This document shows, one piece after another, positions 17,461-64,000 of a stretch of DNA of 64,000 nt. Origin of the DNA: Cyanidioschyzon merolae (Eukaryota). The DNA lies in the NCBI GenBank assembly GCA_000091205.1, contig AP006499.2; one strand, written 5' to 3'. The position numbers and the translations under genes were made by a program. The notes under the pieces were generated by a model that did no database searches, had not been told where the DNA came from, and saw only the letters and a program-made list of their open reading frames with translations. Within the stretch, counting starts at the first letter, position 1. Each line of letters begins with the position of its first letter.

Positions 17461-20400
17461 TCAGCGTAGCTCATCATGACGGGTAGGGTGCATCGATTGC
17501 TCCCGCTGTGCAACGAATGCTTCCCAGGCGTGGTCATCGACCAGCGTCGCTGCTGCGGTAGCCTCTGTATCCAGTTCGTCCCAATGCGGAATGATACGGC
17601 GAGCGCTTTCGAGTTTCGACTCGTGTGTACTCGGATTATTACAGAGATCAATGGTTTTGGCACGAGCCTTGCTCTGTTCGCTGCACCAGGTCTCGCACCA
17701 GAGCCATTCGGACGGTAGGGATTCGAGGGGAACCAGCGGTTCAGCAGCGTTCATGGTACCGCTTTGCTCAGCCAGCGGCACACTTGCATAGTTCGGCAGA
17801 TCCTGGTCCAAATTCGAAAGCGACTCTGGATCGGCGCTCAGTCTCTGGTACAACGCTCGAAGCGTGTCACCGGCACGGTGTGCGCGAAAACGTTTCAGAT
17901 CAACAACGAACAACGCTGATATGTGGTACGGTTGCCCGCGTAGGTGTTTCGCCCAGAATCCTCGCTTCCAAAACCGATACGCATCCATTTCGGGACGATC
18001 GTCACAAAACGGCACGAAACCGTAGACAGCACGTGATCCGAGGGCCAGCTCCCAGAGCTCACCGAGGTCACCGCGAACCACTTGATCCGAATCGATGAAG
18101 ATGATACGTTCCACATCCGACGGGAACAAAACATCTAGGAATAAAATCTTATACGCCCAGATCAGGCGCTGTTTCTCGTGCTGCGGCCGTAGCCATCGAG
18201 GCCAGGCATACCATACCAGTTCGTAGTCGAAGCCGAGGCGATGTGCTAGTCGTGGCAACTGGGCACGAAACCTGGGCGACAGAAAGTTGCCCACCAGCCA
18301 GAACTTGCAGCGATACCTCGGTGTCGCTCGGACCGCACTCAGCATCATGATTCGAAGCAGTCGTTCGTACAAATGCCCAGAGGCAATCGAGAACAGATGT
18401 ATCAGAGGACGCTTGTCCGCTGATGATGACGACGACGATGATGCGCTCGGCGGTAGACAGAGACGCTCGCGACGCTGCACTTGTGACGACGTCCGAAGGG
18501 CAGCGACGAGCGCCCAGACGCGCTCATACCAGGTACGTTGCAGGTGCGCCACACGCAATAGCAGCAGCGGCTGTGACTGTGTCGACTGGCCCCACAAGTC
18601 GTCCACAACCAATAACGTGGCGTTGCTGGCATCGATCGGCTGCAGGTCCACAAGTCTAGCGGCATAAGGCGCGCGTTGCGCCTCGACAAGGGCAATCGAG
18701 AGGTCATCGCGTTGCCTCCCGAACGCCGAGGGAATCGGTATCGGCACAAGACGCCAAATGCCCGGTGTCAATGCCAGCTGAAAGTAGCCGGAACCCTCCA
18801 TCACGACAGTCTCGACCCGAGACCGACGCTCACGACTGCAGTGATCCGGGTGTCGAATGCCGCCATGCTGCTCCAGGCGTAACGCGAGGCCAGGTGCTCG
18901 TGTAGACGGCTGCCGATCGACGACGAAGCCCTCTACGATGAGCTTGCTCAGTTCGTATCGAATGGAGCGATGCGAAGGCGTACCTGGGGGTGCCCACTGC
19001 ACCAGTGCCACATTGTCTGGATCCAGCTCAGCATGCTGCACTGTTGTGAACCAGGTTGCTGGTGTCCGCAGGTGAACGCTGTGGATCCGGTGCTCGGCAA
19101 GTCGATCGAAGATGACGCTGGCGCTGGTACCGTTCGCCAGGGCATCTGCGAAACGCGTCACCAGCTTGGAGCGTACGTACCGCGGCTGGAGCAGGCGTCC
19201 GTCATCGCCTCGCCACTGGAGTCGCGGGTTCAGCGTGACATCGAGTTCAGCGTCGAGTGCTTCGCCAAGTAACTTGCGTAGCACCAGGGTGAACGAAGCA
19301 TCAGCGGCTGTGAATGGTGCAATGAGGCCCTCTGCTCGCAGCGCGCTTCCAGTGTGCTGCCTGGGTACTGCGGGCGCCTTGCGATACCGCAGTGCAGGCA
19401 CCAGGTGCCGCAAACGACGAAGCGAGTCAAGCGGTAGCTCGCTGGGCGACTGCTGCACTAGAAGCGATCCGCCACTGGGCCTGCAGCTTCCATCCAAAAC
19501 GTCTGCGAGGATCGTGGAGATCAAGACCGCATCCGCTTGATGCGACTGATCCACAGGGCTGCAGCGCCCAGATAGCGGCTTTGTTTGCCGAATGATGTAC
19601 GAGCCGCAACGAGCCTCCATCAGAGCCGCTTCCCGCTGGAGGACAGCCTTGAAGAGCGCAGCGGCGTGATGTGCCCAAACCTCGTCCCGATCGATTCGAT
19701 ACCGTCTACCGTTGACAACGAGCGCTAGTTGACCTGGGTCGACGCCCCAGCCGCCAGAGAACAACAATCGGAGCCAATTTGGTGCTGGTGTGCCCGTTAG
19801 GGTAGGCGCTGTGGATGCAGGGCTCACCTCCACGCCACCACAGATGCGCTCCAGGCGCCGTCTCAGGGCGTCATCGAGTTGCATCGAAGAGCGCGACGCA
19901 TTCGCAGGTGTCGCTGTCCACAGCTGCATAAGCGATCGAGCAACTGGGCCCGCCTGGAGACCCGTATGAAAGAGCCCGAGTCGTACCGCAGACGGCCATG
20001 CAGCTGCTCCCGGATGGTGTGACGGTTGCGTCCACTGCTGTTCCGCGAGTACGCGCATCGCATCGTGGAGAAACCTGCAGCCGAAAGTTGTATCCAGGTC
20101 GAGAAGAAGCCACACGGTCAATGGCGGCTGGCATCCATCGTCGTGGGCGTCAGCCGCATCCACAACTGCCAAGCGATACGGGATGTTCAGGAGATGCACT
20201 GCATCGCCCTGGGTATGCTGTTGCTGCTGTGCAAAGAGCGCATCCCAGAGCAGTGCAATCGACTGCAGGCCCTGCTCGATGTGCTCCTGCTGTAGCGCTG
20301 TCGATCCCGAGACCAGCTGGGATGTTGCTGAGAGCAACTGCGTCTCAAAGGCCGGCACAAGCACCAGTCTCGTTGCCAGAACCGCAGCAGTGGCGCTCTC

Positions 20401-23238
20401 CTTGCGTCTAGGCGATGGATACGGCCCTGGTGTGACCGTTGTCGATGTGCGCCAGCTCGATGTCTGGTAGACAACGTCGTCCACACAGGCTGCGTCGGGA
20501 GCGAGTCCCGCGCGTGTCAGCTCAGCGAGTCGCTGCACTTCAGCGTTCAGGTATCGAAAGACGGTGGACGCATCTACGGGATCCTTTGCAAGGTCGCCGA
20601 TGCGCTTTCCATTCAGAGCTAGCAACGCTGACGTATCGGCAGGCAGACCAATGCTCCGTAGCCACTGACGAGTGCGTACTTCCGCGTGCACCAGCATCGC
20701 GCACTGGCTCGAGTCGTGAACCTTTGCAGCAGCAGCAGCGCCGCCGCTGCGGAGACCGAACAACGCACCCAAGACTCGCTTCTTGCCGTGCGGATGTAGA
20801 ATCAGCGATTCGTAGTCGTGTTCGGCATCGAAGCTGGACGAGGTCTGATTCGGAGAAGCCGCTTGCATGCCCGCTGCTGTCTGGAGGAAGACGCGTCGGA
20901 CCTGGTCAGCTCTTGGTGGTAACGGCGGCAGCGCGATGGTGCTCGAGCGGCCCCCGAGTCCCTGCAGCATCCACAGTGCAGCGAGCGGGTGTTCCCGCTG
21001 TACCGTTGCGTGCAACTCGCTCAGAAACGAGGCCGCTGCTCGTCGGGAACGCCGCACATGCAGCAAGTAGTATACTGCTCGGCAGATGACCGCATCCGTT
21101 GACGGTTCCAATGGAGAGCGCCTTGGGGGGAGCTCCCCAGGCGACTGGAGATCACCGCGTCTCCATCCCAGCGACCTCAGCATGCCCAGAGCGCGCGACC
21201 AAGGAGAGCGTGGTGCACCCGCGGTGTCACCGGCTGAAGCGTTCCACCGGTACGCTGCCTCATGCGGTGGCACCAGCACCAGCGATATCTGAAAGGGAAG
21301 GACGGGGTCGCGGTTCTTGACCCATTGGATCAACTGAGCGGACGCTTCGAGTCCAGCCGCGGAGCCTGGGTTCACAAAGGCCACCAGCCGGAAAGCGTTT
21401 CGACGTAGTTTCGGAAATGCCTTTGCGCTGGGGCTCTGCAGCAGCTCCTGGAAGCTCGGACTCCAGTTCTGGTATTTGCGATCCCGCTCTATGTCATTCA
21501 GGCGGAAAATGAAAAGCTGCTCCACCGATTGTACAGGATCGCTGTCGGATTCCTCTGTACAATCTAAGAGTGCCGGTAGGTAGAGGCGCGTATCGACGAT
21601 TGTCGTACTTGCTTCAGCTTCGCTTTGACGATGGGTGATGTTCGCAAGAAAGCGTTCTCGATCATCAATCGCCGCTGTTTTCAGCGGATCCATCATGTCC
21701 CAGATACGGTAAGCAGCCAAATGTGCGGCAGCGATGCTGGCGGCACAGAGCGCCACCGATGAAGCGTCTGGGCTGACCTGTCGTCCATTGAGAAATAAGA
21801 CCGAAGGCAGGTTGTCCCAGTGCAGTTCAGGATGCAGGCGACTGAGGTTCTCCGCAGACGCTGTGAGCAGAGCTCGGCTTTGCGCCACGGAAGCCGCAAA
21901 CGAAGGCTCTGCCTTGGCCTCCTTCCAGAGAGCGGCGCCAATGCTCGGAAGATCATTGCCCAGCTGCTCGATACCCTGCAGCAGCGATCCCGTCAGGTCC
22001 ATCAGCAACTCCTCTAGCGTTTCAGATGCACCAGTGTGCTTCGTCGCTTCCGACCAAAGCGATTGCATGAGCAGCGCATCCAGAGTCGCTTGGATTTCAT
22101 CCTTATCGAGGTCCTGAATGTCGATCGCAACAGATCCTGCGGCACCACGCTGTCTGACATGTTGCGTCTTGTTGCGCTGCAACCAGAGCGTCTCGTTCTG
22201 CTTCGTGTCTAGCACCACGTAATCGGAGCTTTTCAGCGCCAGCTCTACTGTGTAGCCGCTTAATGACATCATCTGCGTCGCGTCACTGGAAAAGTCGGCC
22301 GTTAGCGCCGCTCGACTCGGTGCCGCTCTCCGCATCCGAATGACGTAGACGAGCTCGCAGTTCTGGGCACGTTCACGGACTGCACGATGAAAAGCGGAGA
22401 ACGCATCGTCACGGAAAACATCTGTGTACAGAATGGCAGCGATGAGCGGTTCAGTACCAGACTGATCGGTCCAGCGTTTGTCGCCCGGGACATGCGGCGC
22501 TGCTGCACTGCCACCGACACAGCCCAGGACCGTATCCGACGGCAGCAGGAAGCGTTGGGAGGCAAGATTCCAGCGATGTACCTCGTCTATGTTTCGCGGG
22601 AAGCGACTGCGACAAGCATCAACATGATGACCAAGGGAAGCGAGCGCTGCTTCATCGGCGATCGGGATGCGTTCCGCACCGCATACGAGGAGTACCCACG
22701 TGGAGTCTACTGCGTTCAGAGCGGGCTCCAGCTGATCGCGATCGTCCGTCTCCAAACGCTCATGGAGCTGTAGGCGTGCGGCGTAAACACGCTGGACAAC
22801 GAGTACTTCCAAACTTCTCCACGCTTGGCGAACCGCTGCAGTCAACGCGTCAGCCTCTACTGAGGAAGTCAGATCAGCGGCAGCTGCGGTCCACGCAAGC
22901 TCCAGCCGCGTTCGCAGCCAGCGTATGGCACTGAGCTCGCGCTCCGAGTCCGAGTTAGCGCTGCGAAGTAGATCAGTCCCGTCCGCGATCTGGTCCAATA
23001 AACTCCAGAACAAGCGATCTGAATATATTCTGCGTATGCCTTCTAAAAGCTCTAGCGGCAACGATGATGCGTTCCAGGGTGCTACTACGTCAACGTGGAG
23101 TGCCTTCACGCTGCGCCGCACCGCTGCAGGCAAAAAACTCTGCGAAATACCGATACATAATGATGCACAGATTATCAGCGTATACACCGCGCATACCCAC
23201 AGTCCTAATGAGAAACGTTGTCGCCCGAAGCTCCGCAT
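17461..23238 (-). CDS. UGGT: UDP-glucose:glycoprotein glucosyltransferase (UGGT, ER folding sensor), 1925 aa from the first plausible ATG
   Basis: The C-terminal GT24/GT8-like catalytic domain has KILFLDVLFP..VERIIFIDSDQVVRGDLGELW..YGFVPFCDD..YHISALFVVDL. Long N-terminal thioredoxin-like region. The first ATG (23238) gives a hydrophobic signal peptide, MRSFGRQRFSLGLWVCAVYTLIICASLC. The ORF-track extension to 23886 runs through the 65-bp tandem repeats and is an artefact. The C-terminus reads ...RHDELR*. Confidence 0.9.
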   Translation of the reverse strand: MRSFGRQRFSLGLWVCAVYTLIICASLCIGISQSFLPAAVRRSVKALHVDVVAPWNASSLPLELLEGIRRIYSDRLFWSLLDQIADGTDLLRSANSDSERELSAIRWLRTRLELAWTAAAADLTSSVEADALTAAVRQAWRSLEVLVVQRVYAARLQLHERLETDDRDQLEPALNAVDSTWVLLVCGAERIPIADEAALASLGHHVDACRSRFPRNIDEVHRWNLASQRFLLPSDTVLGCVGGSAAAPHVPGDKRWTDQSGTEPLIAAILYTDVFRDDAFSAFHRAVRERAQNCELVYVIRMRRAAPSRAALTADFSSDATQMMSLSGYTVELALKSSDYVVLDTKQNETLWLQRNKTQHVRQRGAAGSVAIDIQDLDKDEIQATLDALLMQSLWSEATKHTGASETLEELLMDLTGSLLQGIEQLGNDLPSIGAALWKEAKAEPSFAASVAQSRALLTASAENLSRLHPELHWDNLPSVLFLNGRQVSPDASSVALCAASIAAAHLAAYRIWDMMDPLKTAAIDDRERFLANITHRQSEAEASTTIVDTRLYLPALLDCTEESDSDPVQSVEQLFIFRLNDIERDRKYQNWSPSFQELLQSPSAKAFPKLRRNAFRLVAFVNPGSAAGLEASAQLIQWVKNRDPVLPFQISLVLVPPHEAAYRWNASAGDTAGAPRSPWSRALGMLRSLGWRRGDLQSPGELPPRRSPLEPSTDAVICRAVYYLLHVRRSRRAAASFLSELHATVQREHPLAALWMLQGLGGRSSTIALPPLPPRADQVRRVFLQTAAGMQAASPNQTSSSFDAEHDYESLILHPHGKKRVLGALFGLRSGGAAAAAKVHDSSQCAMLVHAEVRTRQWLRSIGLPADTSALLALNGKRIGDLAKDPVDASTVFRYLNAEVQRLAELTRAGLAPDAACVDDVVYQTSSWRTSTTVTPGPYPSPRRKESATAAVLATRLVLVPAFETQLLSATSQLVSGSTALQQEHIEQGLQSIALLWDALFAQQQQHTQGDAVHLLNIPYRLAVVDAADAHDDGCQPPLTVWLLLDLDTTFGCRFLHDAMRVLAEQQWTQPSHHPGAAAWPSAVRLGLFHTGLQAGPVARSLMQLWTATPANASRSSMQLDDALRRRLERICGGVEVSPASTAPTLTGTPAPNWLRLLFSGGWGVDPGQLALVVNGRRYRIDRDEVWAHHAAALFKAVLQREAALMEARCGSYIIRQTKPLSGRCSPVDQSHQADAVLISTILADVLDGSCRPSGGSLLVQQSPSELPLDSLRRLRHLVPALRYRKAPAVPRQHTGSALRAEGLIAPFTAADASFTLVLRKLLGEALDAELDVTLNPRLQWRGDDGRLLQPRYVRSKLVTRFADALANGTSASVIFDRLAEHRIHSVHLRTPATWFTTVQHAELDPDNVALVQWAPPGTPSHRSIRYELSKLIVEGFVVDRQPSTRAPGLALRLEQHGGIRHPDHCSRERRSRVETVVMEGSGYFQLALTPGIWRLVPIPIPSAFGRQRDDLSIALVEAQRAPYAARLVDLQPIDASNATLLVVDDLWGQSTQSQPLLLLRVAHLQRTWYERVWALVAALRTSSQVQRRERLCLPPSASSSSSSSADKRPLIHLFSIASGHLYERLLRIMMLSAVRATPRYRCKFWLVGNFLSPRFRAQLPRLAHRLGFDYELVWYAWPRWLRPQHEKQRLIWAYKILFLDVLFPSDVERIIFIDSDQVVRGDLGELWELALGSRAVYGFVPFCDDRPEMDAYRFWKRGFWAKHLRGQPYHISALFVVDLKRFRAHRAGDTLRALYQRLSADPESLSNLDQDLPNYASVPLAEQSGTMNAAEPLVPLESLPSEWLWCETWCSEQSKARAKTIDLCNNPSTHESKLESARRIIPHWDELDTEATAAATLVDDHAWEAFVAQREQSMHPTRHDELR

Positions 23239-23587
23239 CAGCACCTCGGCTGCCAGCTCATGCGGAAAGCACCTGGCTGGCAGGGCGTAGCAGGCTTGAG
23301 CGGCGACAGCGCGGTAGCATCCGCTGCCGCCTCGGCTGGGAATCGCTCCTGCCTGCGTCTGTGTTGGGCCTTCGTTCAACCAGGTACACCAGGGGCCGTG
23401 CTTGCGCTCGAGAGCGCTATGCAGGAGGAGGTGCTTTCGTCGTCCAGTGCGCACCGTTGGACTCGATGCATACTCCCGTGCTGCTTGCTGGTACGTTCGT
23501 TGCCAGCGTAAGCTGCTTTGACTGCCTGGTGTTAATGCTGGGGCAAAGGCCGGGCGTTTGATGGTGTAGTCTGAAGTCAATGCATGG

Positions 23588-23782
23588 GATCTGGTGTTTC
23601 CGGAAGCACGCTCGTTGTAGGTAGTCGTGGAATCGACGTCTGGTACGCATGAGATCTGGTGTTTCCGGAAGCATGCTCGTTGTAGGTAGTCGTGGAATCG
23701 ACGTCTGGTACGCATGAGATCTGGTGTTTCCGGAAGCATGCTCGTTGTAGGTAGTCGCGGAATCGACGTCTGGTCCCTCACG
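23588..23782. repeat. Tandem repeat, 65-bp unit x3, about 350 bp upstream of the UGGT start
   Basis: 'gatctggtgtttccggaagca(c/t)gctcgttgtaggtagtcg(t/c)ggaatcgacgtctggtacgcatga' starts at 23588, 23653 and 23718. Confidence 0.85.
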
Positions 23783-24074
23783 AGCGCTGCAGCGTTTCTG
23801 GGCGAGCTCGAGATCGATCTTCTCGTTGGGTGTATCTCGTCGCTCGATCCGACGAGCTTTCGGGTGCTGCGTGTTCTGGTGGACACTTGTCACGTCGCTG
23901 CTAGGTGCGCTGCCCCTAGTTTTCCCGAGGGGCACCACGGCTTTGTCATAGATGCAGGGGTATGAGGTAGTCGTACCGATGAGGACGCATGGTGCTGCGG
24001 CGAGTCGCTAGCGCCCAGACTCATACCCGTTTCACCACCGCTGCGGTGGATAGCAGGCCATCGACGTCAAGATG

Positions 24075-46118: not shown

Positions 46119-49100
46119 ATGAACCCTGCAAGCAGACCAGGCTCGTTACCGCAGGGCGAGCAGCGCGGTGTCGCTGGTGACGGCACACAGCGGCGAGTGG
46201 CGGTCACGGCGCACGAAGCGGCACCTCTGCCGAGGCCTGGTACGGGTCCATCACCCGCGGACTATGCTACTGCGTCCGCTAGTCGGTATGGGGCAGCGTA
46301 CGAGCAGCAGCGTTTGTCGGAAAGGTCCACGTTTCGGCAGCAACAACAGGCTTCCGCAGAGTCGCACGGTACCGGTAATATGGGGCAGATATCTGAGGCG
46401 CAGCTTGCTCGTAACGTCTCCGATCAAGCTGATCAGGTTACACAGCGGCCGGGGCGCTCCTCTGCCTGGTCGAGTGAGGCTTCCTCGCAAGGTAATGGAA
46501 CGGCATATACAGGTGCAGGGGCGGCTATGGGCGCAGCGCCGCCTCCACCAGGTCGCCAAAGCGTTCTCCCAACGCCACAGCAACCACAGCGGTCGCCTGC
46601 GGGACTGTCATCACGTTCTGGGGCGTATGAGGCAACTGCGCACTCTGAGTCGGCGTCGGCTCTGGGACAAGCGTTGCCCCCACAGAGAATCAGCCCAGAA
46701 CGCACAGCACCACCCGTCAGGGGCAATATGTCGAACACGATGGCATCCGACGCTCTGCATGCATCTGCCGCAGATATCTATGGATCACCGCGTCGTTTTG
46801 ATACACCCAGTGACAACCAGGGGGCAATGACCACTGACCCGAGAGCTGCTGCTTCAGCTCTCGCGTCAAACAGTATACCACGAGCGGGAGTTGCTCAAGG
46901 TCTACAGGCCCGCCCGATGCCGCAGGGCACCGATTCGCTGTCCAGCGATGGCCAGCATTCCGCTGAAGGCGGAAATCCTACGAACAGCGCACATACTGGT
47001 AGAGCTGGCGGGTACGTTCCTGCTCCATTAGGGTCGAGCGCCTATACAGGGCGTGGTGTAACGGCAGCGACACTCGAAGCAGGACAGCACATGGAGCATC
47101 AGCGTCCGATGCTGATATCGGATCAGGGGCGCTCGAACCTGAGCCATCCGAGCGGTGCACCAGGCGATGCGAGATACACCCCACAGGCTGCTACATCCCA
47201 GTGGGCGACAACTGGCTACGGAGTCGCCGACTCGATTGCTTTCGGTTCCAATCATGGCGATAGCGCAACAGCTACGGCTGTGCAGCATCCATCGGGGATT
47301 CGTACCGGACCGGATACGGCAAGGGGCATGCCCTCTGCACAACCGGTACCTGGTTACCGTGCCGCAGCACCTACTGTACCGCACCTTCATCCATCGATGG
47401 ATGCGTCGATGATGAATGGCGCATCGCCGGTCGCAACTGCTACCAGTGCCGGACATGGAACCGCGGCGGGCAACCAGTATACAGAAGTTAGCCAGCGCAA
47501 TACGGTACCGTTTTCGTCTCAAGCACCGGCTGTAATGCCTCGAGCACCGCCAGGTGGACCCTCTGGAGGAATCACCACCACAGTGTCGCCTCCAGGCCAG
47601 AATCGTGTCCCGTCATTTTCGAATCCGTTGTCGATGGGTACGTCGCTTTCTGCTGGCGCCAATGCGCTGGGATCTACCACGAGATCAACCATCTCATCCG
47701 GATATAGCCCCGTCGGATATGCTAACCGACCTGTACCTGGCGTTTTGATGCCCAGTCCTGGAGATGGACCCCCGACTGCGGGGCAGTTCGCTCCAGCAAT
47801 GGCGTCTGTGGGTCCAGCGTACGCCCGGCAGGGCAATTCTGCTGTTTCATACCAAGCAGTTCCGGGAAACGTGCCGTATCCGATGCAACCCATTCCTGGT
47901 AGTGGCGGTGCGGGGCCGCAAATGGCGGGTCCTCCAGTACCTGGTTCCTATGCGAACTTGCCAACCGGTATGTCGACTGCGCCCGGAGCGCCATACTACG
48001 GGCCACCTGGCGGAATGGTAAGCGCACCTGTTCAAGCGATTCCAGCGCCAGCAGCAGCAGCAGCGACTCCGAGTACCGACTTTGCATCGCTACCACGCCC
48101 CGCACTGGATCCCGACTCTGTCATGTATCGAGTATGGTTCGGTGATGCTTTGCAGCGGGACCTCCTGTGGCCGCAGCAGGTTCTTGCTGGCGACCGTTCC
48201 GCCCATGGAGGCGGATATAATCCGGGAGCTGCGGGTGCTGGGATGCCTTTCGAACCTCAGATTAACTTTTGTGCCTTTGATCCAACCTGGTGCTGCCCGA
48301 TTGAGCTCTTCAGACCCTGCCACCCGTCGCGGATGCGCATGAGCGTCAACTTCTTCCCAAACAGTGCTGCTACTCGCAGCAAGACTGGACTACCATTGGC
48401 TGCGATTGTACGCCCTCTGGCACCACCACTGAGTGACGATCCTCTTGATCAGGTGCCTGTGGTGAACTTTGGAACAAACGGTATTGTGCGTTGTCGTCGT
48501 TGTCGAACGTACATCAATTTCGGTGTAACATTTACGGACGGTGGTCGACGTTGGCGCTGCAATATCTGCCAACTGCTCAACGACGTTCCACCCGAGTACT
48601 ATTCTCCCTTGGACGCAAATGGAAAGCGGCATGATATTGCTGAGCGGGCAGAGCTGTGCTCCGCCTCCGTCGAGTTTGTCGCACCGAGCGAGTATATGAT
48701 TCGGCCTCCACAACCACCGGTTTACGTCTTTGTTTTAGATGTTTCGTATGGAAGTATCATTTCGGGGGCGTTTATTACGTTTGTAGAGACGATTCGTAGC
48801 AGTCTGGATCTGCTTCCACAGGATGGTCGCACACGTGTCGCCGTGCTCACGTTTGACACCCAGTTGACGTATTGTGTGCTGCCGCCGGGCCAACAGGGTG
48901 AACCTCGTTTCCTGGTGACACCCGATGTCGACGATGTGTTTCTACCGACGCCTGAGGATGTGCTTGCGTCGCTGGATGAGTCGCGGCCGGCTTTATTGAG
49001 ATTGCTCGACAAACTGCAGACCATCTACGATCCGGCAACGCTGCAGAGTACGGCAACCTTGACGGGGAATGCGCTCACAAATGGAAGCGCCTTGGGCAGT

Positions 49101-50582
49101 GCAGTGATGGGCGCATATTATATCATGCAGCACTGGGGTGGCAAAATGGTTGTCCTTGGTGCGTCGCGTCCAACGATGGGCATCGCAAAACTCAAGGATC
49201 GTGACGACGCCTACGCGCTCTTTACAGACCGAGAGGCTCGGCTGCTGTCGCCTGAAGAGGGCCAATACAAACGCCTAGCGGTCGACTTTGTCCGAGCACA
49301 GGTCAGTGTTGATCTGTTTCTGACGCCACCCAGCGGTACCTACGTAGACGTGGCGAGCCTCGGCTGCCTCTCAAAGTACACTGGAGGCGAGCTTCTCTAC
49401 ATTAGTGGCTTTGAAGCGACGCGCGATGGTGCTCGTCTAGCGCGAGCGCTCCGCCGCAACCTCTCCCGCGAGACCGGGTTCGAGGCGGTATTCCGACTCC
49501 GCGCAAGCAACGGTGTCCGTTGTTCGCGTTTCCATGGGCGCTTCTTCACCCGAAGCTCCGACCTTTTAGCGCAACCGAATGTCGATTCCGACAAAACCTA
49601 TGTGGTGGAGCTGAGTTTCGACGAGGCACAGCTGTCAAGTCGCTATCTCTGTGCACAAAGCGCCCTTTTGTACACAACAAGCCGTGGGGAGCGACGAATC
49701 CGGGTGCATACAATCGTTGCACCGGTAACATCCATTGTGAACGAGCTCTATCGCAGTGCCGATGTGAACGCGGTTGTGAACCTCCTGGCGCGCTCGCTCT
49801 TCGAACACTGCACCATGAAGAAGGCGGACGCTGTTCGTCGGCTTATAGTTGACCAAATTGTTGACATCTTGGCCAAGTATCGTCAGTTGCTATCGAGCCC
49901 TGGCAATGTGACGAGTTCACAGCTCGTGCTGCCCGACGCCTTGCGCTGCATGCCTCTTTACGCGCTGGGCATTATTCGCAGCGTGCTGTTGAGTCGCGAC
50001 GCAGCTACAGCGATGGTACTTCGACTCGACTGCAAAGCGGCACTTTTACAGGCGATTGACAACGGCAGTATTGGCACGCTCATGGCGTTTGCGTACCCCA
50101 ACTGCATTCGCCTTGAGGACGGCACTGGTGTACACGCTTCGGCTGCTGCTCTGTCTGGTATGGTGCTCATCGACGCGGGCTTTGAGATTTTTATTTGGAT
50201 TGCACAGGATGTGCCGCCACCGCTGCTCGTTTCGCTCCTTGGTCCAGAGATTACGAGTTTATTCCTGGCACAACCGCCTCCAGCACATGTACCCAGCCCG
50301 AAAGCGCTCGGTGAAGAGGTACTGCGGTTGCCGTACCACGAGCCGAACGACCGTGGGCATGAAATGCGCCGTCGCATTCACGCTGTTCTGGAAGCGCGCT
50401 GGGACGCACAGCCGGTTGTTTCTCTGGTTCGACAGGGCACACCAGCAGAAGCCCGAGTCCTAACGCTGATGACTGAGGATCGAACCTCCTCGGAGATGGG
50501 CTATCTCGAATTTCTCGCGGCCATTCAGCGGCAATTGCAACAGCGTGTGGTTGGCTCGAACGCTGCCGCCGGGCGTTCGTAA
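46119..50582 (+). CDS. SEC24: COPII coat subunit Sec24, with a ~780-aa Pro/Gly/Ser/Ala/Gln-rich N-terminal region
   Basis: The Sec23/24 zinc finger is NGIVRCRRCRTYINFGVTFTDGGRRWRCNICQLLNDVPPEYY. It is followed by trunk, beta-barrel, helical and gelsolin-like regions (VYVFVLDVS.., MVVLGASRPTMGI.., etc.). The long low-complexity N-terminus is typical of Sec24 but unusually extended here. ATG at 46119, TAA at 50580-50582. Confidence 0.9.
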   Translation: MNPASRPGSLPQGEQRGVAGDGTQRRVAVTAHEAAPLPRPGTGPSPADYATASASRYGAAYEQQRLSERSTFRQQQQASAESHGTGNMGQISEAQLARNVSDQADQVTQRPGRSSAWSSEASSQGNGTAYTGAGAAMGAAPPPPGRQSVLPTPQQPQRSPAGLSSRSGAYEATAHSESASALGQALPPQRISPERTAPPVRGNMSNTMASDALHASAADIYGSPRRFDTPSDNQGAMTTDPRAAASALASNSIPRAGVAQGLQARPMPQGTDSLSSDGQHSAEGGNPTNSAHTGRAGGYVPAPLGSSAYTGRGVTAATLEAGQHMEHQRPMLISDQGRSNLSHPSGAPGDARYTPQAATSQWATTGYGVADSIAFGSNHGDSATATAVQHPSGIRTGPDTARGMPSAQPVPGYRAAAPTVPHLHPSMDASMMNGASPVATATSAGHGTAAGNQYTEVSQRNTVPFSSQAPAVMPRAPPGGPSGGITTTVSPPGQNRVPSFSNPLSMGTSLSAGANALGSTTRSTISSGYSPVGYANRPVPGVLMPSPGDGPPTAGQFAPAMASVGPAYARQGNSAVSYQAVPGNVPYPMQPIPGSGGAGPQMAGPPVPGSYANLPTGMSTAPGAPYYGPPGGMVSAPVQAIPAPAAAAATPSTDFASLPRPALDPDSVMYRVWFGDALQRDLLWPQQVLAGDRSAHGGGYNPGAAGAGMPFEPQINFCAFDPTWCCPIELFRPCHPSRMRMSVNFFPNSAATRSKTGLPLAAIVRPLAPPLSDDPLDQVPVVNFGTNGIVRCRRCRTYINFGVTFTDGGRRWRCNICQLLNDVPPEYYSPLDANGKRHDIAERAELCSASVEFVAPSEYMIRPPQPPVYVFVLDVSYGSIISGAFITFVETIRSSLDLLPQDGRTRVAVLTFDTQLTYCVLPPGQQGEPRFLVTPDVDDVFLPTPEDVLASLDESRPALLRLLDKLQTIYDPATLQSTATLTGNALTNGSALGSAVMGAYYIMQHWGGKMVVLGASRPTMGIAKLKDRDDAYALFTDREARLLSPEEGQYKRLAVDFVRAQVSVDLFLTPPSGTYVDVASLGCLSKYTGGELLYISGFEATRDGARLARALRRNLSRETGFEAVFRLRASNGVRCSRFHGRFFTRSSDLLAQPNVDSDKTYVVELSFDEAQLSSRYLCAQSALLYTTSRGERRIRVHTIVAPVTSIVNELYRSADVNAVVNLLARSLFEHCTMKKADAVRRLIVDQIVDILAKYRQLLSSPGNVTSSQLVLPDALRCMPLYALGIIRSVLLSRDAATAMVLRLDCKAALLQAIDNGSIGTLMAFAYPNCIRLEDGTGVHASAAALSGMVLIDAGFEIFIWIAQDVPPPLLVSLLGPEITSLFLAQPPPAHVPSPKALGEEVLRLPYHEPNDRGHEMRRRIHAVLEARWDAQPVVSLVRQGTPAEARVLTLMTEDRTSSEMGYLEFLAAIQRQLQQRVVGSNAAAGRS

Positions 50583-52900: not shown

Positions 52901-53806
52901 AGTGCCCTCCACAACCCAGGAGCATGGGTGGAGCAAAATTAAGCGACACTGCGAAGCAGCTCTGGCGCCATCGCAGACGCACTGTCAGGCTCGGCGAAGC
53001 GATCGTGGGCCAATGTGGGCGGGATCACGGCATGCATTTGCAACAGTAAGCACGGAGCGGCACAAGTGTCCCGAACGCACCGTCTGAAGTAAGAGACAAC
53101 CGTCATATGCACTCGCACGGACATATACAAGCAAGTCTGGCACTTGCATCGTACACGGGCTCCCTGCGTGCGATTTGCGCAATAGCCTCAGCTATGGTAA
53201 AACCCCTATGATGCTCGAGCGTGGCTTCCCGGGCGACCTACTGTCATGCACCTCTGTCGATGCGCTGTGCGCGACCGCACGAGACGATGTTATGAGCGTG
53301 CCCGAAGAGCATGGAGTGTACCGAGCACCCGCGCGTCATCGAGACTTACTCCGTGGGCCCGTCACAGTCTCTCAAGAAATGCACCGAAGAACACCAATAC
53401 TATTTTGAATGATGTGTCACAGGGATCGCTGCAAGACGGCAGGCACGGACACGTCGTTGCACGCATGCAGGCACGCATGCATGCATTCCGAAAACGTGTC
53501 CGCGATTTGGCGCTTCTTCGCGCATCGTTCTTCGCAGGGATGATCCTTATTGCAGCTCGTTTAGGCACACACACAAAAGCTAGAACGAAGCAAAGGGCTT
53601 CAGTTGTGCATTGCTGTGCATTGAAGCTGTTATTCGCTAGAGAACGTCGAACTGCCGGGCCGCCTGTATCCACAGTGCCGCGAAAGCGCGCAGCGCCTGC
53701 CGCGTCGTGCGCTGCTGGTCCCGAAATCCGCCGGAGTGGGTCGCTGCGAGGACCGCCCAGCGTCCGTTGGCGGTCTAGCGAACGTAGACGAGCCCACGGA
53801 GCAGAC

Positions 53807-55747
53807 ATGTTCGACGTAACCTGGAAGCGGCTGCTATGGATCACTGTATACTTGGTGATCATCCTAGTGCAGACAAGCAATGCGGTGGGGTTCTACATTC
53901 CGGGGGTTGCCCCCGTGGATTATCCGCAGGGTGCTGCGCTCACCATTAAGACGACGAAACTTGTTTCCAGCAAGTCAGTGCTGCCGTACAACTACTATTC
54001 ACTGCCGTTCTGTCGTCCAAAGAAACTTAAGAAGTATCCTGAAAACCTTGGGGAATTGTTATCTGGAGCCCGCATCTACTCAACGCCGTTTGAGGTGCGC
54101 ATGCTCGAGGACAAGACCTGCGCCGTGCTTTGCAGGCGGCGTTTGCGCGAGCGTGACGCAAATATTCTCGCACAACGCATCCGTCAGGAGTACCGCGTCT
54201 TGCTTCAGCTGGATAACTTGCCCGTAGGAGAACCTATCTACGGTGAGGGGCAGAAAATCGGGATCGAGCGTGGCTACCCCCTCGGGGTCGCAGACGCAGC
54301 GGGTACGTACCTTAACAACCACCTTTCGTTCAAGATCTATTACCATAGGCCAAGCGGAGGTCTGAAAATTCCGACGAAAGGCTATCGCATTGTCGGATTT
54401 GAGGTTGCAGCGCTGTCTATTCAACATAGCGAGGCTGCGAACTCTGACTCGCGGAAACCGAACACAACGCTGCTATCGACGTGCTCAACCGCCACGGGAC
54501 CCGACGTGAACGCGCCTCGGCAAGTGGTAGAGCCGGGCGCAGATGTCTTCTACACGTACGATGTGGAGTTTAGTGAGAGCGCCGTGGCTTGGGGCTCTCG
54601 CTGGGATATTTATCTGCAACAGCCACCTACCGCCTCGTCGATACACTGGTTCAGCATCTTGAATTCGTCGCTAATTGTGGTTTTTCTTGCTGCCACAGTG
54701 TTCATGATCCTTCTGAGGACCTTGCGCCAAGATCTTTTGCGATACAATAGCGCGGCCGATGGCGAGGAAGCGGACGAGGAGGAGTACGGCTGGAAGCTCG
54801 TTCACGGGGATGTATTTCGGGCTCCGCGGAATCTGAACATTTTCGCCGTCCTTGTGGGCAGCGGCGCTCAGCTTCTTGGAATGCTTGTTGTCGTACTCGT
54901 TATTGCGATGGCCGGCTTTTTGTCACCGGCAAACCGGGGCGGTCTCGTAACCGCGATGGTCATGCTTTGGCTGGTTATGGCATTTCCGGGCGGCTACGTT
55001 GCTGCCCGCATCTACAAATCCTATCGTGGCACCATGCCGAAACGGGTGACGCTCTCAACGGCGATCCTCTTTCCGGGTATATGTTTCGCAACGTTTTTTG
55101 GCCTGAACCTGCTTCTGTGGATGCTGCAGTCTTCAGCGGCGGTCCCGTTCGTAACGCTTCTGTACATGTTTGTCCTTTGGTTTGGGATATCTATACCGAT
55201 GGCGTTTTTGGGTTCGTATTTGGGGTACAGGAAGCCAGCGATTGATTTCCCCTGTCGGACGAATTTGATTCCACGGCAGATCCCACAGTTACCGCTCTAC
55301 GCACGCACCTGGGTGGGAATGTTGGTAGGCGGTTTGCTCCCGTTCGGTAGCCTTTTCCTCTCGCTGTTCTTCATTCTGAATTCAGTACTCTTCCAGCGCT
55401 ACTACTACTTTTTCGGTTTTCTGACAGCATCGTTTTTCATTTTGCTGTTGACGACAGCTCTGAACAGCATGATTTTTGTATACATTCGACTTTCGTCAGA
55501 AGACTGGCGTTGGCCGTGGTACTCTTTCATGGTATCTTCTAGCACTGGAGGCTACGTTTTTCTCTATTCTGTGTTATATTTGTGGAAAAAACACGAAATT
55601 GACGGCGAAACAGCAATTTCTTGCTTGCTCTTTGTTGTCTATGCGGCCATCGCCTCATCCTTTATCGGTGTGGCGCTCGGTGCCGTTGGCTTCCTCGCAG
55701 CGCTCGGGTTTGTGCGACGAATATACTTGTCTGTGAAGCTTGACTAG
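53807..55747 (+). CDS. Transmembrane 9 superfamily protein (TM9SF / nonaspanin / EMP70)
   Basis: The first plausible ATG is at 53807. The ORF-track start at 53246 lies 187 codons upstream, and the ~560-nt stretch between them does not match the TM9SF N-terminus. This gives a cleavable signal peptide (MFDVTWKRLLWITVYLVIILVQTSNA) followed by the TM9SF N-terminal signature FYIPGVAPVDY..G......K...S......Y.YYSLPFC.P. The luminal domain has WDIYL....IHWFSI.NS. Nine C-terminal TM helices are present. TAG at 55745-55747. Confidence 0.9.
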   Translation: MFDVTWKRLLWITVYLVIILVQTSNAVGFYIPGVAPVDYPQGAALTIKTTKLVSSKSVLPYNYYSLPFCRPKKLKKYPENLGELLSGARIYSTPFEVRMLEDKTCAVLCRRRLRERDANILAQRIRQEYRVLLQLDNLPVGEPIYGEGQKIGIERGYPLGVADAAGTYLNNHLSFKIYYHRPSGGLKIPTKGYRIVGFEVAALSIQHSEAANSDSRKPNTTLLSTCSTATGPDVNAPRQVVEPGADVFYTYDVEFSESAVAWGSRWDIYLQQPPTASSIHWFSILNSSLIVVFLAATVFMILLRTLRQDLLRYNSAADGEEADEEEYGWKLVHGDVFRAPRNLNIFAVLVGSGAQLLGMLVVVLVIAMAGFLSPANRGGLVTAMVMLWLVMAFPGGYVAARIYKSYRGTMPKRVTLSTAILFPGICFATFFGLNLLLWMLQSSAAVPFVTLLYMFVLWFGISIPMAFLGSYLGYRKPAIDFPCRTNLIPRQIPQLPLYARTWVGMLVGGLLPFGSLFLSLFFILNSVLFQRYYYFFGFLTASFFILLLTTALNSMIFVYIRLSSEDWRWPWYSFMVSSSTGGYVFLYSVLYLWKKHEIDGETAISCLLFVVYAAIASSFIGVALGAVGFLAALGFVRRIYLSVKLD

Positions 55748-58420: not shown

Positions 58421-60118
58421 TCAGTGCCATCCCTTGTTGTCGCCAACGCTGGAAGTGTACTTGATCCAGCGCATGGCCTCATGGTCGTCGGCGGTGAGCG
58501 CGATGTGTCCATAGACCCAGGCGCGGAAGTACCAGAAGCACCAGAAGACAACGATCCAGACGATACCGGCGAGCGGCAGCTGCAGCACCGACGGTAGCGC
58601 CGGCAGATCGAGGACCGCGTGCGCAAAAAGCAGCTCCGCGAACAACAGCGATGGCAGGTAGTGGTAGATAAACGTACTTCGCTGGATCGGCATGTACGGG
58701 AGAATGCCGAGCGCATAGCCAAGCAGAAGGAATGTTGCCAGCCGCAGGTAGCGCTCCCATGCGTCCGTGCTCGTTCCACGCTTTTTCCGCTGGCGAATCA
58801 GGCGCAGCAAGAACGGCATTGCCGCCACTGTACCAAGCACCGCTGCCAAGCACATCCAGAATAGCAGCGGATTCCCGATCAGATAGATCTGCATGGCGTG
58901 ATGCGGGCGCAGCGGTCGCCCGTCAGCATCCAACGTACCCTCCTGCCAGCGATCCCAGTAGAGGAGGCCACGGCCTACGTAGGGCCATGTGTGCCAGCGC
59001 GCTTGCCACTGGTGCTCATCGAGGATGCGCGCGTTCGCCAGCAGCATCTCCTTGTTGAGCTGCCAGACGAGCTTGAGGAAAGGCGGCTTTCGGGCCTGCG
59101 GGTCGTAGCCGTCGCGACCAATGAGGGTCCGCTGGAACTCGGCGCTCATAAAGTCACCGCCTGGTCCATTATAGATCAGAATCTGAAAGTGCGGGTACCA
59201 GAGCGCCACGTACAAGAGCAGGGCTGTTGCGGCGACGATCGCGCAGGTGCTCCACTCGAGCGGTTCGGCGGCGAGCGCAGCGCCGGCAACCGACTCGAGG
59301 CCGAAGAGGCCGGGCACCACGAGCGTGGTCCACTTCACTGAGAGCGCTGCACCGCTCGCGAGGCCGGCGCGCACTGCAGCCCAGCGTCGAGCGCGGCTCG
59401 CTAGAGGCGTGCGCCACAGCCGCACGAACGCATCGATGCATAGCGCGGAGTAGAAGATGAGCTGCGAGTCCGTGAGGATATGGCGCGCCTCGATCAGGTT
59501 CAGCATGTCGAAGAGCAGAAACACGCCCACACTAGTGGCTGCGATCCGCGACATACCCATCCCGCGGGCGATGCGGAAGCCTAGCGGAGGCAGGAGCGCC
59601 CCGAAGACGCCAGCGCACGCGCGCATCGCATAGTACCGGCTGTCTGGTGGGTAGACCTTGTCGACGTACCAGTCGCGATTCGGGACGTCACCAGCGAGTT
59701 TCGCGACTGCAGCCAGCGTGAGCTTCGCCAGAGGCGGGTGGATATCAAAGAAGTAGGTGCGATTGAGGTAGTGGTGTGCGAACGACGCAAAGTGAACCTC
59801 ATCGAAGACGCATTCGGGTGGCCAGCGGATCCGGTAGAGGCGCGTCCACAGTCCAAGCAGCACGAGCGCACCCGTGAGCCAGGCGTCCGGGTTCGCGCGT
59901 ACGTGCGCAGTCGAGCGCAGCACTAGTCGTTCGAGTGGTGATGCCTGTTGTTTCCGCGGGTGAGCGCCCTGGTGCTCATGCTGTGGTGTGTCCACTTTGG
60001 TGCGGCCCTGATGCATGACGTCCAAGTCTGCCGCCTGCACACGCTCAGCTGACGGCGACGAGGCGGGTAGCGAAGCGGCGGTGGCGTCCGCGGCTCTTCG
60101 CTTGACAGCAGGCGCCAT
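58421..60118 (-). CDS. Dolichyl-phosphate-mannose:protein O-mannosyltransferase-like (GT39/PMT family), lacking the MIR-domain loop
   Basis: The PMT loop-1 signature VFDEVHFASFAHHYLNRTYFFDIHPPLAKL resembles yeast Pmt VFDEVHFG.FA..Y....YFFDVHPP. Multiple TM helices are present, plus the conserved C-terminal block WHTWPYVGRGLLYW..MQIYLIGNPLLFW. Only ~60 aa sit where eukaryotic PMT1/2/4 carry ~200 aa with three MIR motifs. ATG at 60118, TGA at 58421-58423. Confidence 0.8.
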   Translation of the reverse strand: MAPAVKRRAADATAASLPASSPSAERVQAADLDVMHQGRTKVDTPQHEHQGAHPRKQQASPLERLVLRSTAHVRANPDAWLTGALVLLGLWTRLYRIRWPPECVFDEVHFASFAHHYLNRTYFFDIHPPLAKLTLAAVAKLAGDVPNRDWYVDKVYPPDSRYYAMRACAGVFGALLPPLGFRIARGMGMSRIAATSVGVFLLFDMLNLIEARHILTDSQLIFYSALCIDAFVRLWRTPLASRARRWAAVRAGLASGAALSVKWTTLVVPGLFGLESVAGAALAAEPLEWSTCAIVAATALLLYVALWYPHFQILIYNGPGGDFMSAEFQRTLIGRDGYDPQARKPPFLKLVWQLNKEMLLANARILDEHQWQARWHTWPYVGRGLLYWDRWQEGTLDADGRPLRPHHAMQIYLIGNPLLFWMCLAAVLGTVAAMPFLLRLIRQRKKRGTSTDAWERYLRLATFLLLGYALGILPYMPIQRSTFIYHYLPSLLFAELLFAHAVLDLPALPSVLQLPLAGIVWIVVFWCFWYFRAWVYGHIALTADDHEAMRWIKYTSSVGDNKGWH

Positions 60119-60552: not shown

Positions 60553-60622
60553 TCGGCTACTGTTCGGCTACTGTTCGGCTACTGTTCGGCTACTGTTCGG
60601 CTACTGTTCGGCTACTGTTCGG
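60553..60622. repeat. 11-bp minisatellite (GGCTACTGTTC) x6
   Basis: 'tcggctactgttcggctactgttcggctactgttcggctactgttcggctactgttcggctactgttcgg', read directly. It generates the spurious LLFGYCSATVR-repeat ORFs. Confidence 0.85.
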
Positions 60623-61906: not shown

Positions 61907-64000
61907 TGGATAAATCTCTTTCTTGAAGGCCTAAAGAAATCTAGAGTCGATATTCACAAAATATGACTTGAGCTCGCATAACCGGACGAAAAATAAACCG
62001 CAACAGGAAAAGGTCTTCAGTTTCATTTCTCCAGCAATTCATTATATCCATACTCAGCTCCATTTCGGCCTTGCGTTCGAGATCTAGGCTCCAAAACATG
62101 GAGTAGGACATGAGGAGGGGGGGAACAAATCTCTTCGTCATTACTCATATCTGAAAATATTTCTCATGGGTTGACAAGCCCAAAGACCGAACGATGCTTT
62201 AGACTAGTGGCGCGGATAACAGAAGCGTCATTCGTTAACTTTCATGATATGACCATGTCGACGGATATGTTCTCCTGTTCATGCTGGCGATCGTTCCTGA
62301 TAACATCGATGATTGGCCGCATCCCTTCGCGAAAAAGCCCGCGTAGAGCGCAAAGGGGGCGCCATTCATGGAAAAGATGACGGTTAAGATTTTTTGGTTC
62401 CTCGCGTTCGTGAGGCAACCCATTGCCCTGTATTCGTACATATCTGCGTCACCCCTGTGTCCAGCACCGTTGTCGCGGAATTTCTCGTAAATTTTGAGGT
62501 AGGCATCCGCCCGCTCTCTTCTCATTGATGCTTCCCTATTCGGAGAAATCAGGTGGTTGATAGAATTCTCTTTGAAAAACTATTCCGGAAATACCACTTT
62601 TGCGATGTGCGTTACGTCGCGATGCTGCTCGATCTGCAAATGCGTCACTCCTAAACAAGAGCTACAAACATTCCTGGAGTGCGAATCGACGCGGTTTCTA
62701 ATAGCGTCTTGAAACAATCAGTAGTACGGGTCATAGATATGTTGAAGAATATAGGATTCCACCACCATCTCGTCGCACAGACGTCACTATGGCAGCCATC
62801 GATGTAAGGCCTCCCCATGTTGCTTCTTCTACTTTCCTGACCGTCTTCGCTAGACACTATGTCGCGTTTCCTTCTGACATCCGGCAACACCGGCCACCCA
62901 AAACCCACTACCTCCAATTACAAAAGTCTGACATTTTTTAAGTGAACAACTCATCGGACGCCTCTGCCTTGAACGCGAAAATCAGTAGAATACACATACA
63001 GAAAGTTAGAAACGCCATTGAATCCAAAGCAATACTATGATACAATTCGATCGCAAATGCAAGCGGCCCCGATAGAGCAGTCGCTCCAGAAGAGGTCATT
63101 GTAACGATTCTCTAGATCGGCAACACGAACGTGGAGTGAAGTGGCGGACAGAGTTCGCAAAGCGTTCGCAGGGCACACAATATAGAAAGTACAAAAAAAA
63201 TAATATACACGAACGGAAGAGCAAGTATTAACGCCACCTACTGTAGACGGTAAAAGGAAGAAGTCTTAGCGTATGGTCAAGCACTGAAATTTTGGCGGAG
63301 GGTCGGCAAGCAGCGAGACTCTCGCAACCTCTAATCCGAGAGACCATACAGTAGCGAGTGATGTAACGCACCTTAGCATCTCCTCTGCAAAAGATGAGAT
63401 TCTGAACCAGGAGTGGGTATATTGCGCATAAGAGTCACCTAGATTGCGGTAGACGAATGGTAGAGCGCTTTACGCTAACGCAGGCAAAAGGTCTGCAAGA
63501 ACAGCTTGAAGGCTGCCGAGAAAATAAATGTACTTGATCCTAAGTTGCATGAAGCAAACCGTTTCCAACGCGATCCGTAGAACGCCAGAGCTGCTCTCTT
63601 TCCAAACTGCATCCGCAGCAGCGACGGATACGCCACTGCGAATGCAGATGGCAGGTACGCGACGCAGGATAGAAAATCTGAACCGATCAGCACAGCCGAG
63701 AAAAAGTAAATGCGAGAAAGGGAAAAAAACTGGTCAGCGGAAAGAACGATTTCCCGAAACTAGTATCCATCCAGCAATTTCGCCGGTCTTACCAGTGGGC
63801 AAGTCCACCAAAGCATAAAAAGCATAGATACGGAGGTAATTCCCTAATGGCTCTGGTACGCTAGATGAAAAACATGACGTGTGCATAGGAGCTCAGACCG
63901 AACCGCCGAAGGAGAATCCCTAATGAGTCTGAATTGATAGACGTCAAAATCACAGACGCTTTCGCGCTGGGATCATCGCTGTAATGGGGGGAATGGGGGG

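Follow-up and report, generated by a model that had tools for sequence, protein, structure and literature searches.

Protein O-mannosylation is usually described for fungi, animals and actinobacteria. In such descriptions the MIR domain is integral to the eukaryotic enzyme. Here we analyzed a gene of the red alga Cyanidioschyzon merolae that encodes a protein O-mannosyltransferase (PMT) of glycosyltransferase family 39 (GT39) without MIR. The gene lies near one end of a 64,000-nucleotide stretch of contig AP006499.2, hereafter the window, which means this stretch at its full length. In the closest described eukaryotic systems, the fungal Pmt4 and Pmt1-Pmt2 enzymes (structures 9e61, 9i5k and 6p25), a GT-C fold with 11 transmembrane (TM) helices carries a beta-trefoil MIR domain in the lumenal loop EL4 between TM7 and TM8, and dimerization is obligatory. 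In yeast Pmt4, D80 is the proposed base, the acceptor is flanked by H83 and H563, and the donor phosphate is held by H101, K241, R659, H664 and H665 (PMC12586580). Bacterial PMTs, among them MtPMT (Rv1002c) of M. tuberculosis and C. glutamicum Pmt, fall into a size class of about 450–570 amino acids (aa) and combine a PMT domain with a C-terminal PMT_4TMC domain. These MIR-less enzymes are proven protein O-mannosyltransferases, and MtPMT recognizes its substrates without MIR, prefers Pro-rich acceptors, and has a WW-like motif in the C-terminal part of EL4 (PMC12331936). In red algae, GT39 was reported in 2013 for C. merolae and Galdieria, with its origin left open and its activity given as unknown (PMC3797821), and a 2021 review described MIR-less PMT-4TMC proteins in Galdieria and ascribed them to independent lateral gene transfer (LGT) (PMC8147084). 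The C. merolae gene itself had been drawn in 2007 as the subtelomeric gene "M" of the chromosome terminal regions (Nozaki et al. 2007, PMC1955436). The gene is therefore already known, along with its name, its family and its chromosome-end location, and so is the lack of MIR in red-algal enzymes; the novelty assumed in a preliminary description of the window was preceded by an existing annotation and by these three papers. What we add is modest: a census across red-algal classes, a clade with 92% bootstrap support, a prokaryote-like EL4 length, a Tyr/His signature at the donor site, a count of four or more subtelomeric copies that are transcribed or annotated, and the lack of a close bacterial donor. 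We conclude with good confidence that this is a functional nuclear gene for a MIR-less GT39 enzyme with PMT and PMT_4TMC domains and a GT-C fold of 11 TM helices, which would act in the endoplasmic reticulum (ER) through the mechanism proposed below and which would belong to an old red-algal clade.

The gene is an uninterrupted open reading frame (ORF) of 565 aa with an ATG start, at the coordinates where the preliminary description had placed it. Its product is identical at 565/565 positions to the C. merolae 10D protein BAM82295.1 / XP_005538331.1 (UniRef100_M1V6M1), which is annotated as a Dol-P-Man:protein mannosyltransferase, Dol-P-Man standing for dolichyl-phosphate-mannose. Pfam placed the protein in the family through matches to PMT (PF02366) at aa 85–274 (124.9 bits against a cutoff of 22.7, E 5.2e-36) and to PMT_4TMC (PF16192) at aa 347–553 (122.3 bits against a cutoff of 32.4, E 2e-35). 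An NCBIfam scan gave no match, a result that carries little information for a eukaryotic protein. The motifs that had been quoted for the protein were located at aa 104–114 (VFDEVHFASFA), aa 122–133 (YFFDIHPPLAKL), and aa 375–380 (WHTWPY), and the earlier assignment to GT39 by a loop-1 DE motif and a C-terminal block of four TM helices thus stands. The gene and its parts are as follows.

58421..60118, minus strand: complete coding sequence, including the stop codon, of the MIR-less GT39 protein O-mannosyltransferase (ORF, 565/565 identity, Pfam).

59297..59866, minus strand: PMT domain PF02366, aa 85–274, spanning TM1, the lumenal loop EL1 and TM2–TM6 (Pfam and helices of the AlphaFold2 model).

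59798..59803, minus strand: DE motif D106-E107 in loop 1; D106 corresponds to yeast Pmt4 D80, the proposed catalytic base (alignment with 9e61).

58871..59179, minus strand: lumenal loop EL4, aa 314–416, predicted to form short helices and a beta-hairpin (strands 385–390 and 407–413) and no beta-trefoil (AlphaFold2 model).

59081..59122, minus strand: 14-residue linker, aa 333–346 (IGRDGYDPQARKPP), at the site where opisthokont enzymes carry the MIR insert of about 205–238 aa (alignments).

58460..59080, minus strand: PMT_4TMC domain PF16192, aa 347–553, spanning the C-terminal part of EL4 and TM8–TM11 (Pfam, alignment); it holds H369, R480, Y485 and H486, which correspond to Pmt4 H563, R659, H664 and H665 (alignment).

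Several independent approaches were used to determine whether MIR is absent from the protein. Pfam did not detect MIR (PF02815) in the 565-aa sequence, even at E ≤ 10. We also built a MIR profile from 17 PMT MIR inserts and applied it with hmmsearch --max; it recovered only its own training sequences, with no match among 91 MIR-less PMTs and none in the stop-to-stop ORFs of all six frames of the window (best E 2.3). The best sequence matches among solved structures were yeast Pmt4, Pmt1 and Pmt2 and Chaetomium Pmt4. When aligned by phmmer with yeast Pmt4 (9e61), residues 41–332 matched Pmt4 18–322 and residues 335–501 matched Pmt4 528–679, leaving about 205 Pmt4 residues without a counterpart as a clean gap at the MIR site. 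The preliminary description had reported a missing MIR loop and had raised an intron over the loop as a way in which MIR might have been overlooked. The ORF is continuous, and the lack of a MIR-profile match in any of the six frames excludes an intron or annotation artefact that conceals MIR. Length, profile and predicted structure agree, and MIR is absent from this PMT.

The length of EL4 provides a more precise comparison. In a 76-sequence alignment we measured the stretch between the block HF..L...G.GD.FM..FQ..L and the block W.WP..RG..Y (aa 305–392 of the C. merolae protein). This stretch was 88 aa long in the C. merolae protein and 86–91 aa in the other MIR-less eukaryotic sequences; in prokaryotic and prokaryote-like sequences it was 72–126 aa, mostly 85–89, and in fungi 287–296 aa. 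The first part of the loop, up to the MIR insertion point, measured 33 aa. Prokaryotes have 31–34 aa there, most of the other MIR-less eukaryotic sequences have 33–35 aa, and Tuber has 239 aa. Because the lumenal loop has prokaryotic length, MIR was probably never inserted into the loop of this lineage. Proteins of Cyanidiales group A have two further features that are absent in all other PMTs compared, namely 11 extra residues in the loop of the EL4 beta-hairpin (about aa 391–406, window 58901–58948) and a 10-residue C-terminal tail (…VGDNKGWH; aa 555–565, window 58424–58456).

The predicted fold and the catalytic residues were compared to those of the fungal enzymes. The AlphaFold2 model (mean predicted local distance difference test 79.8, predicted template modeling score 0.81) contained 11 TM helices. 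A Foldseek search of the PDB with the model returned PMT chains as its best seven matches, with oligosaccharyltransferases and ArnT far behind; the top match was Pmt4 of C. thermophilum (9i5k_A, a 493-residue model) with E 3e-21, a target-normalized TM-score of 0.82, and a root-mean-square deviation of 3.3 Å. The protein is therefore predicted to adopt the GT-C fold with 11 TM helices. It shares this fold, the DE motif and the EL4 flanks with the fungal enzymes at about 30% sequence identity; the C. merolae protein was modeled here as a monomer. In the phmmer alignment, Pmt4 D80, H83, H563, H101 and K241 correspond to D106, H109, H369, H127 and K262, and Pmt4 R659, H664 and H665 correspond to R480, Y485 and H486. 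Seven of these eight catalytic or binding residues are identical, the exception being Y485 in place of H664. The DE motif was invariant in 76/76 sequences compared. At the position of Pmt4 H664, Tyr was found in 22/22 MIR-less eukaryotic and 45/46 prokaryotic sequences, and His in every MIR-bearing fungal sequence and in 1/46 prokaryotic sequences. The bacterial PMTs, including those of Dehalococcoidia, Patescibacteria and Pseudonocardiaceae, share with the C. merolae protein the domain architecture, the EL4 length and the donor-site YHY. Comparison with an environmental allele, 98% identical in protein, gave a ratio of nonsynonymous to synonymous substitution rates of 0.30, which with only about 22 substitutions is weak evidence. 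We regard the protein as a functional GT39 enzyme, its activity being predicted from the conserved residues.

These features lead us to propose that the enzyme is most likely an ER Dol-P-Man:protein O-mannosyltransferase that recognizes its substrates through the membrane core alone. By homology with yeast Pmt4 and Pmt1-Pmt2, it would be seated in the ER membrane with EL1 and EL4 facing the lumen. Dol-P-Man would be bound through H127, K262, R480, Y485 and H486, and the acceptor Ser or Thr would be held between H109 and H369. The base would be D106 of the DE motif, and mannose would be passed on with inversion to secretory proteins or proteins of the wall. Acceptor choice without MIR would have to be made by the transmembrane groove and the C-terminal hairpin of EL4, as proposed for bacterial PMTs. 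EL4 would have kept its uninserted, prokaryote-like length, and the gene would have been amplified subtelomerically to the copies described below. We infer the ER location, the Dol-P-Man donor, the protein Ser/Thr acceptor, and the mode of substrate recognition by analogy with the characterized enzymes; the presumed donor would differ from the polyprenol-P-Man that bacterial PMTs use at the plasma membrane. A hairpin homologous to the WW-like region of MtPMT is present at aa 385–413, where it contains the group-specific 11-residue loop insert. Recognition of substrates with no MIR involved, as in MtPMT, is a likely working model. The unusual substrate recognition predicted in the preliminary description is a reasonable expectation.

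We determined the distribution of MIR-less PMTs by word-indexed and exhaustive searches, the exhaustive HMMER scan yielding 2776 cluster representatives at E ≤ 1e-3. MIR-less PMTs were found in Cyanidioschyzon, Cyanidiococcus (two paralogues) and Cyanidium (two); in Galdieria partita, G. yellowstonensis, G. sulphuraria and G. phlegrea; and in Porphyridium (two), Rhodosorus, Pyropia, Chondrus (annotated "family GT39"), Gracilariopsis and Agarophyton. Each of the red-algal classes sampled is represented among them, and no MIR-bearing red-algal PMT turned up in the word-indexed or the exhaustive search. The red-algal proteins carried PF02366 and PF16192 only, with the exception of the G. phlegrea model, which has additional RecA/Rad51-family Pfam matches; those outside Cyanidiales group A were 35–41% identical to the window protein. 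The same two domains without MIR were found in Anaeramoeba and in several metagenomic proteins, which are considered eukaryotic because the three contigs checked carry neighboring Arf, Prp8, CSN8, kelch and PH-domain genes. The strongest matches of the HMMER scan were nearly all single-stretch proteins of less than about 630 aa, and clear MIR-type proteins (long, and split at about position 335 of the C. merolae protein) appeared only from about 181 bits down. One of the two alternatives offered in the preliminary description, a lineage-specific minimal PMT, is contradicted at the level of C. merolae by this distribution, since the architecture occurs in every red-algal PMT recovered, in Anaeramoeba, and in metagenomic lineages.

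A few of the sequences recovered require comment. The eukaryotic metagenomic PMTs P0018 and P0025 (L003 8001–10193) are 730–744 aa long, and their length stems from a Ser/Ala-rich low-complexity insert of 105–155 aa in the cytosolic TM4–TM5 loop and from long N-termini, not from MIR. P0090, in the cluster of P0014, is a 405-aa member of a eukaryotic PMT group and is deposited as 'rt, partial [Symbiodinium sp. KB8]'; the Symbiodinium label is likely a result of assembly contamination, the relatives of this sequence being found on compact 50-kb metagenomic contigs. The EukProt sequences P0150 and P0299 we take, from their names, to be Cyanophora gene models.

We examined the relationships of these proteins in a neighbor-joining tree of 108 taxa (452 columns, gamma-corrected distances, 100 bootstraps). 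The red-algal sequences and the eukaryotic metagenomic lineages formed one clade with 92% support. All named members of this clade are Rhodophyta, the published red-algal GT39 proteins with their PMT and PMT_4TMC domains fall within it (the C. merolae entry being identical to the window protein), and the sampled prokaryotes and the MIR-bearing opisthokont PMTs fall outside it. The MIR-bearing PMTs formed a separate clade with 98% support, and the C. merolae protein lies outside it and hence outside the known eukaryotic subfamilies PMT1, PMT2 and PMT4. Support was low for the backbone that joins the red-algal and MIR-bearing clades to prokaryotes, Anaeramoeba and two EukProt sequences. In a 76-taxon neighbor-joining tree, the MIR-less eukaryotic clade received 99% support, and the eukaryotic sequences together with the unplaced P0036 were split from the prokaryotic and prokaryote-like ones at 53–66%; this split was lost in the 108-taxon tree. 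On the sequences compared, the MIR-less PMTs of red algae appear to form an old, coherent clade that extends across the red algae.

The affinity to prokaryotes was assessed by a search of 185,579 species genomes, from which the best 80 loci were taken. Among these loci the nearest prokaryotes belonged to Dehalococcoidia, to Patescibacteria (Saccharibacteria and Parcubacteria) and, with a few sequences, to Pseudonocardiaceae; identities were 28–36%, and the C. merolae protein was not nested among the sampled prokaryotes. Pseudonocardiaceae contributed two sequences to the best 80 loci (32–34% identity), located elsewhere in the tree. Scored on the same columns, the protein gave 362 bits with an opisthokont profile and 375 bits with a prokaryote profile, which is close to a tie. 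In conserved signature columns, the red-algal proteins had the prokaryote state in 4–7 columns and the opisthokont state in 0–2. This pattern would fit opisthokonts as the derived branch and is compatible with ancient LGT and vertical descent alike. The enzyme had been described as actinobacterial in type; this holds for its size and domain order, but not for its affinity. Most likely it is neither specifically actinobacterial nor a recent transfer.

To place the gene in its genomic context, we examined its position on the chromosome, and one further feature is needed here.

63983..64000, plus strand: the C. merolae telomere repeat AATGGGGGG, present twice where the window ends (repeat identity from PMC1955436).

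Judged from these telomere repeats, the gene is about 3.9 kb away from a chromosome end, and it is the last long ORF before that end. The GC content drops to 0.47 over the last 2 kb of the window. Between the gene and the telomere, at 60553–60622, there is a perfect 11-bp tandem repeat (TCGGCTACTGT, 6.4 copies). Including the copy analyzed here, C. merolae has at least four subtelomeric copies of the gene. BAM80644.1 (CML001C, with which chromosome 12 begins) has the same sequence as BAM81152.1 and is identical to this copy at 557/565 positions. CMJ319C (BAM80406.1), which is the final gene on chromosome 10, has the same dbCAN call, GT39(85-311), and is counted as a copy on this annotation. 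According to Data Set S8 of a 2026 Plant Cell data set (PMC13353863), CMJ319C reaches about 74–94 and CML001C about 12–46 transcripts per million in diploid as well as haploid cells, with little dependence on ploidy. The Cyanidiococcus orthologue is also near an end: its 610-kb contig stops 6.6 kb away. A 582-aa group-B PMT from JGI metagenomes (P0266, L085 5733–7481; 37 cluster members), 63% identical to the Cyanidiococcus B paralogue, may represent a non-subtelomeric second PMT of a Cyanidioschyzon-like alga. For C. merolae, the 2013 survey counted a single GT39 (PMC3797821).

The neighbors of the gene in the window are eukaryotic, as had been described, and encode EMP70, Sec24, UDP-glucose:glycoprotein glucosyltransferase (UGGT), a protein kinase, an apyrase, a photolyase/cryptochrome and an organellar RRF. 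Four of the window's genes belong to the secretory pathway: apyrase (8627–10192), UGGT (17461–23886, a 2141-aa ORF), Sec24 (46119–50582) and EMP70/TM9SF (53246–55747). That they share the window with the PMT gene is probably a coincidence in a compact genome. Compared to eight neighboring long ORFs, the synonymous codon preferences of the PMT gene were correlated (relative synonymous codon usage, r 0.80), and its GC content at third codon positions (GC3) was 0.77 against 0.55–0.64. The neighbor-like codon usage noted previously therefore applies to the preferences among synonymous codons, but not to GC3. We read the raised GC3 as a subtelomeric composition effect rather than a mark of foreign origin, and it may come from GC-biased gene conversion among the subtelomeric copies. 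The C. merolae enzyme is thus encoded by a eukaryotic nuclear gene with host codon preferences, unlike the bacterial PMTs.

How red algae came to have MIR-less PMTs can be explained in more than one way. We tentatively entertain a single ancient lateral transfer by which the red-algal or an early archaeplastid ancestor acquired a bacterial PMT, separately from the opisthokont PMTs and with the function proposed above. The domain architecture and EL4 length are those of prokaryotes, the signature columns favor the prokaryote state, and the prokaryote profile scored slightly above the opisthokont profile for nearly all clade members. Green algae and plants have been reported to lack GT39 (PMC3797821), and independent LGTs were favored in the review cited above (PMC8147084). 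However, the sampled prokaryotes included no sister group, the best of them, at 28–36% identity, lying outside the 92% clade; the 76-taxon tree separated the eukaryotic sequences and P0036 from the prokaryotic ones; and the prokaryote-like states may be ancestral ones that opisthokonts have lost. The preliminary description had offered an anciently acquired bacterial-type enzyme as its second alternative. Its antiquity agrees with the coherence of the red-algal clade, but the backbone of the tree is too poorly supported either to show or to exclude acquisition.

It is also conceivable, but in our view rather doubtful, that an early eukaryote already had a MIR-less PMT, which red algae and some other lineages inherited vertically; MIR would then have been gained on the stem of the opisthokonts, and green plants and others would have lost the gene. 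Such descent would account for MIR-less PMTs in red algae, in Anaeramoeba, and in several eukaryotic metagenome lineages with eukaryotic neighboring genes. The EukProt sequences P0150 and P0299, if from Cyanophora, point the same way. The 53–66% bipartition also speaks for it, as does the listing of one GT39 in each of the cryptomonads (PMC6260743). Against it, this bipartition disappears when 108 taxa are included, the signature columns hold almost no synapomorphies of red algae and opisthokonts, and the patchy distribution would require many losses. Similarly, we regard as somewhat unlikely the more general proposal that the MIR-less PMTs represent one old eukaryotic lineage rather than scattered imports from bacteria, present in the red-algal ancestor and perhaps earlier and common to glaucophytes, cryptists, Anaeramoeba and picoeukaryotes, from which the MIR-bearing opisthokont enzymes would be derived.

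A different concern is the chemistry of the reaction. A GT-C enzyme could mannosylate a lipid or glycan, or use another sugar donor, instead of modifying Ser or Thr of proteins. GT-C families diversify in their acceptors, the MIR domain that helps the fungal enzymes to handle the acceptor is missing here, and we found no report in the literature of an O-mannosylated red-algal protein. However, the acceptor-flanking H109 and H369 and the complete donor-phosphate set are conserved, both Pfam scores are far over their cutoffs, the closest structures are all PMTs, and the bacterial PMTs modify proteins without MIR (PMC12331936). We consider a different chemistry improbable.

A canonical MIR-bearing PMT1, PMT2 or PMT4 ancestor that deleted MIR is highly improbable. 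On either side of the MIR site, the flanking residues (GPGGDFMSAEFQRTL and PFLK...LN.EM) match Pmt4 well in the alignment, as a deletion would predict, but prokaryotes conserve these flanks equally. Deletion is unlikely because the loop has prokaryotic length, which would require an exact return to the ancestral state (33 aa up to the insertion point, compared to 31–35 aa in prokaryotes and most of the other MIR-less eukaryotes), and because the donor site carries the Tyr of MIR-less sequences; all MIR-less eukaryotic sequences compared have this Tyr, whereas every MIR-bearing PMT has His. The protein also falls outside the 98% clade of MIR-bearing PMTs. Finally, a recent or Cyanidiales-specific transfer of an actinobacterial-type Pmt, as described for about 1% of Cyanidiales genes, is hardly credible: the size near that of bacterial Pmt, the lack of MIR, the raised GC3, and the presence in Cyanidiales of transferred genes, some of them amplified subtelomerically (PMC9812998), are outweighed by the orthologues and paralogues in all red-algal classes sampled, the host-like codon preferences, the presence of only two Pseudonocardiaceae (32–34% identity) among the best 80 prokaryotic loci, and the main text of a survey of Cyanidiales transfers, which names no mannosyltransferase (PMC6629376).

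Some points weigh against our reading of the gene as a functional ER PMT of an old red-algal clade. C. merolae 10D is a wall-less haploid. Transcription is known from sister copies only, and reads of such near-identical copies may map to more than one of them. The phylogeny was obtained by neighbor-joining on corrected p-distances only; within the clade the position of Cyanidiales group A is weakly supported (12–24%), and the backbone is poorly supported. In the literature, including that which followed the 2013 survey (PMC3797821), we found no biochemical evidence of red-algal protein O-mannosylation.

Red algae thus have conserved, expressed PMTs without MIR, yet no O-mannosylated red-algal protein has been reported. 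The present scan adds a broader taxonomic picture of these enzymes along with arguments against their recent or actinobacterial transfer. A genuine activity might be of importance to the cell wall of diploid Cyanidiophyceae, which is largely proteinaceous, and it would offer a eukaryotic test bed for the function of MIR, as C. merolae has homologous-recombination genetics. If the MIR-less PMTs are indeed a single old lineage, red algae such as the tractable C. merolae would be a natural system for the role of a PMT without MIR.

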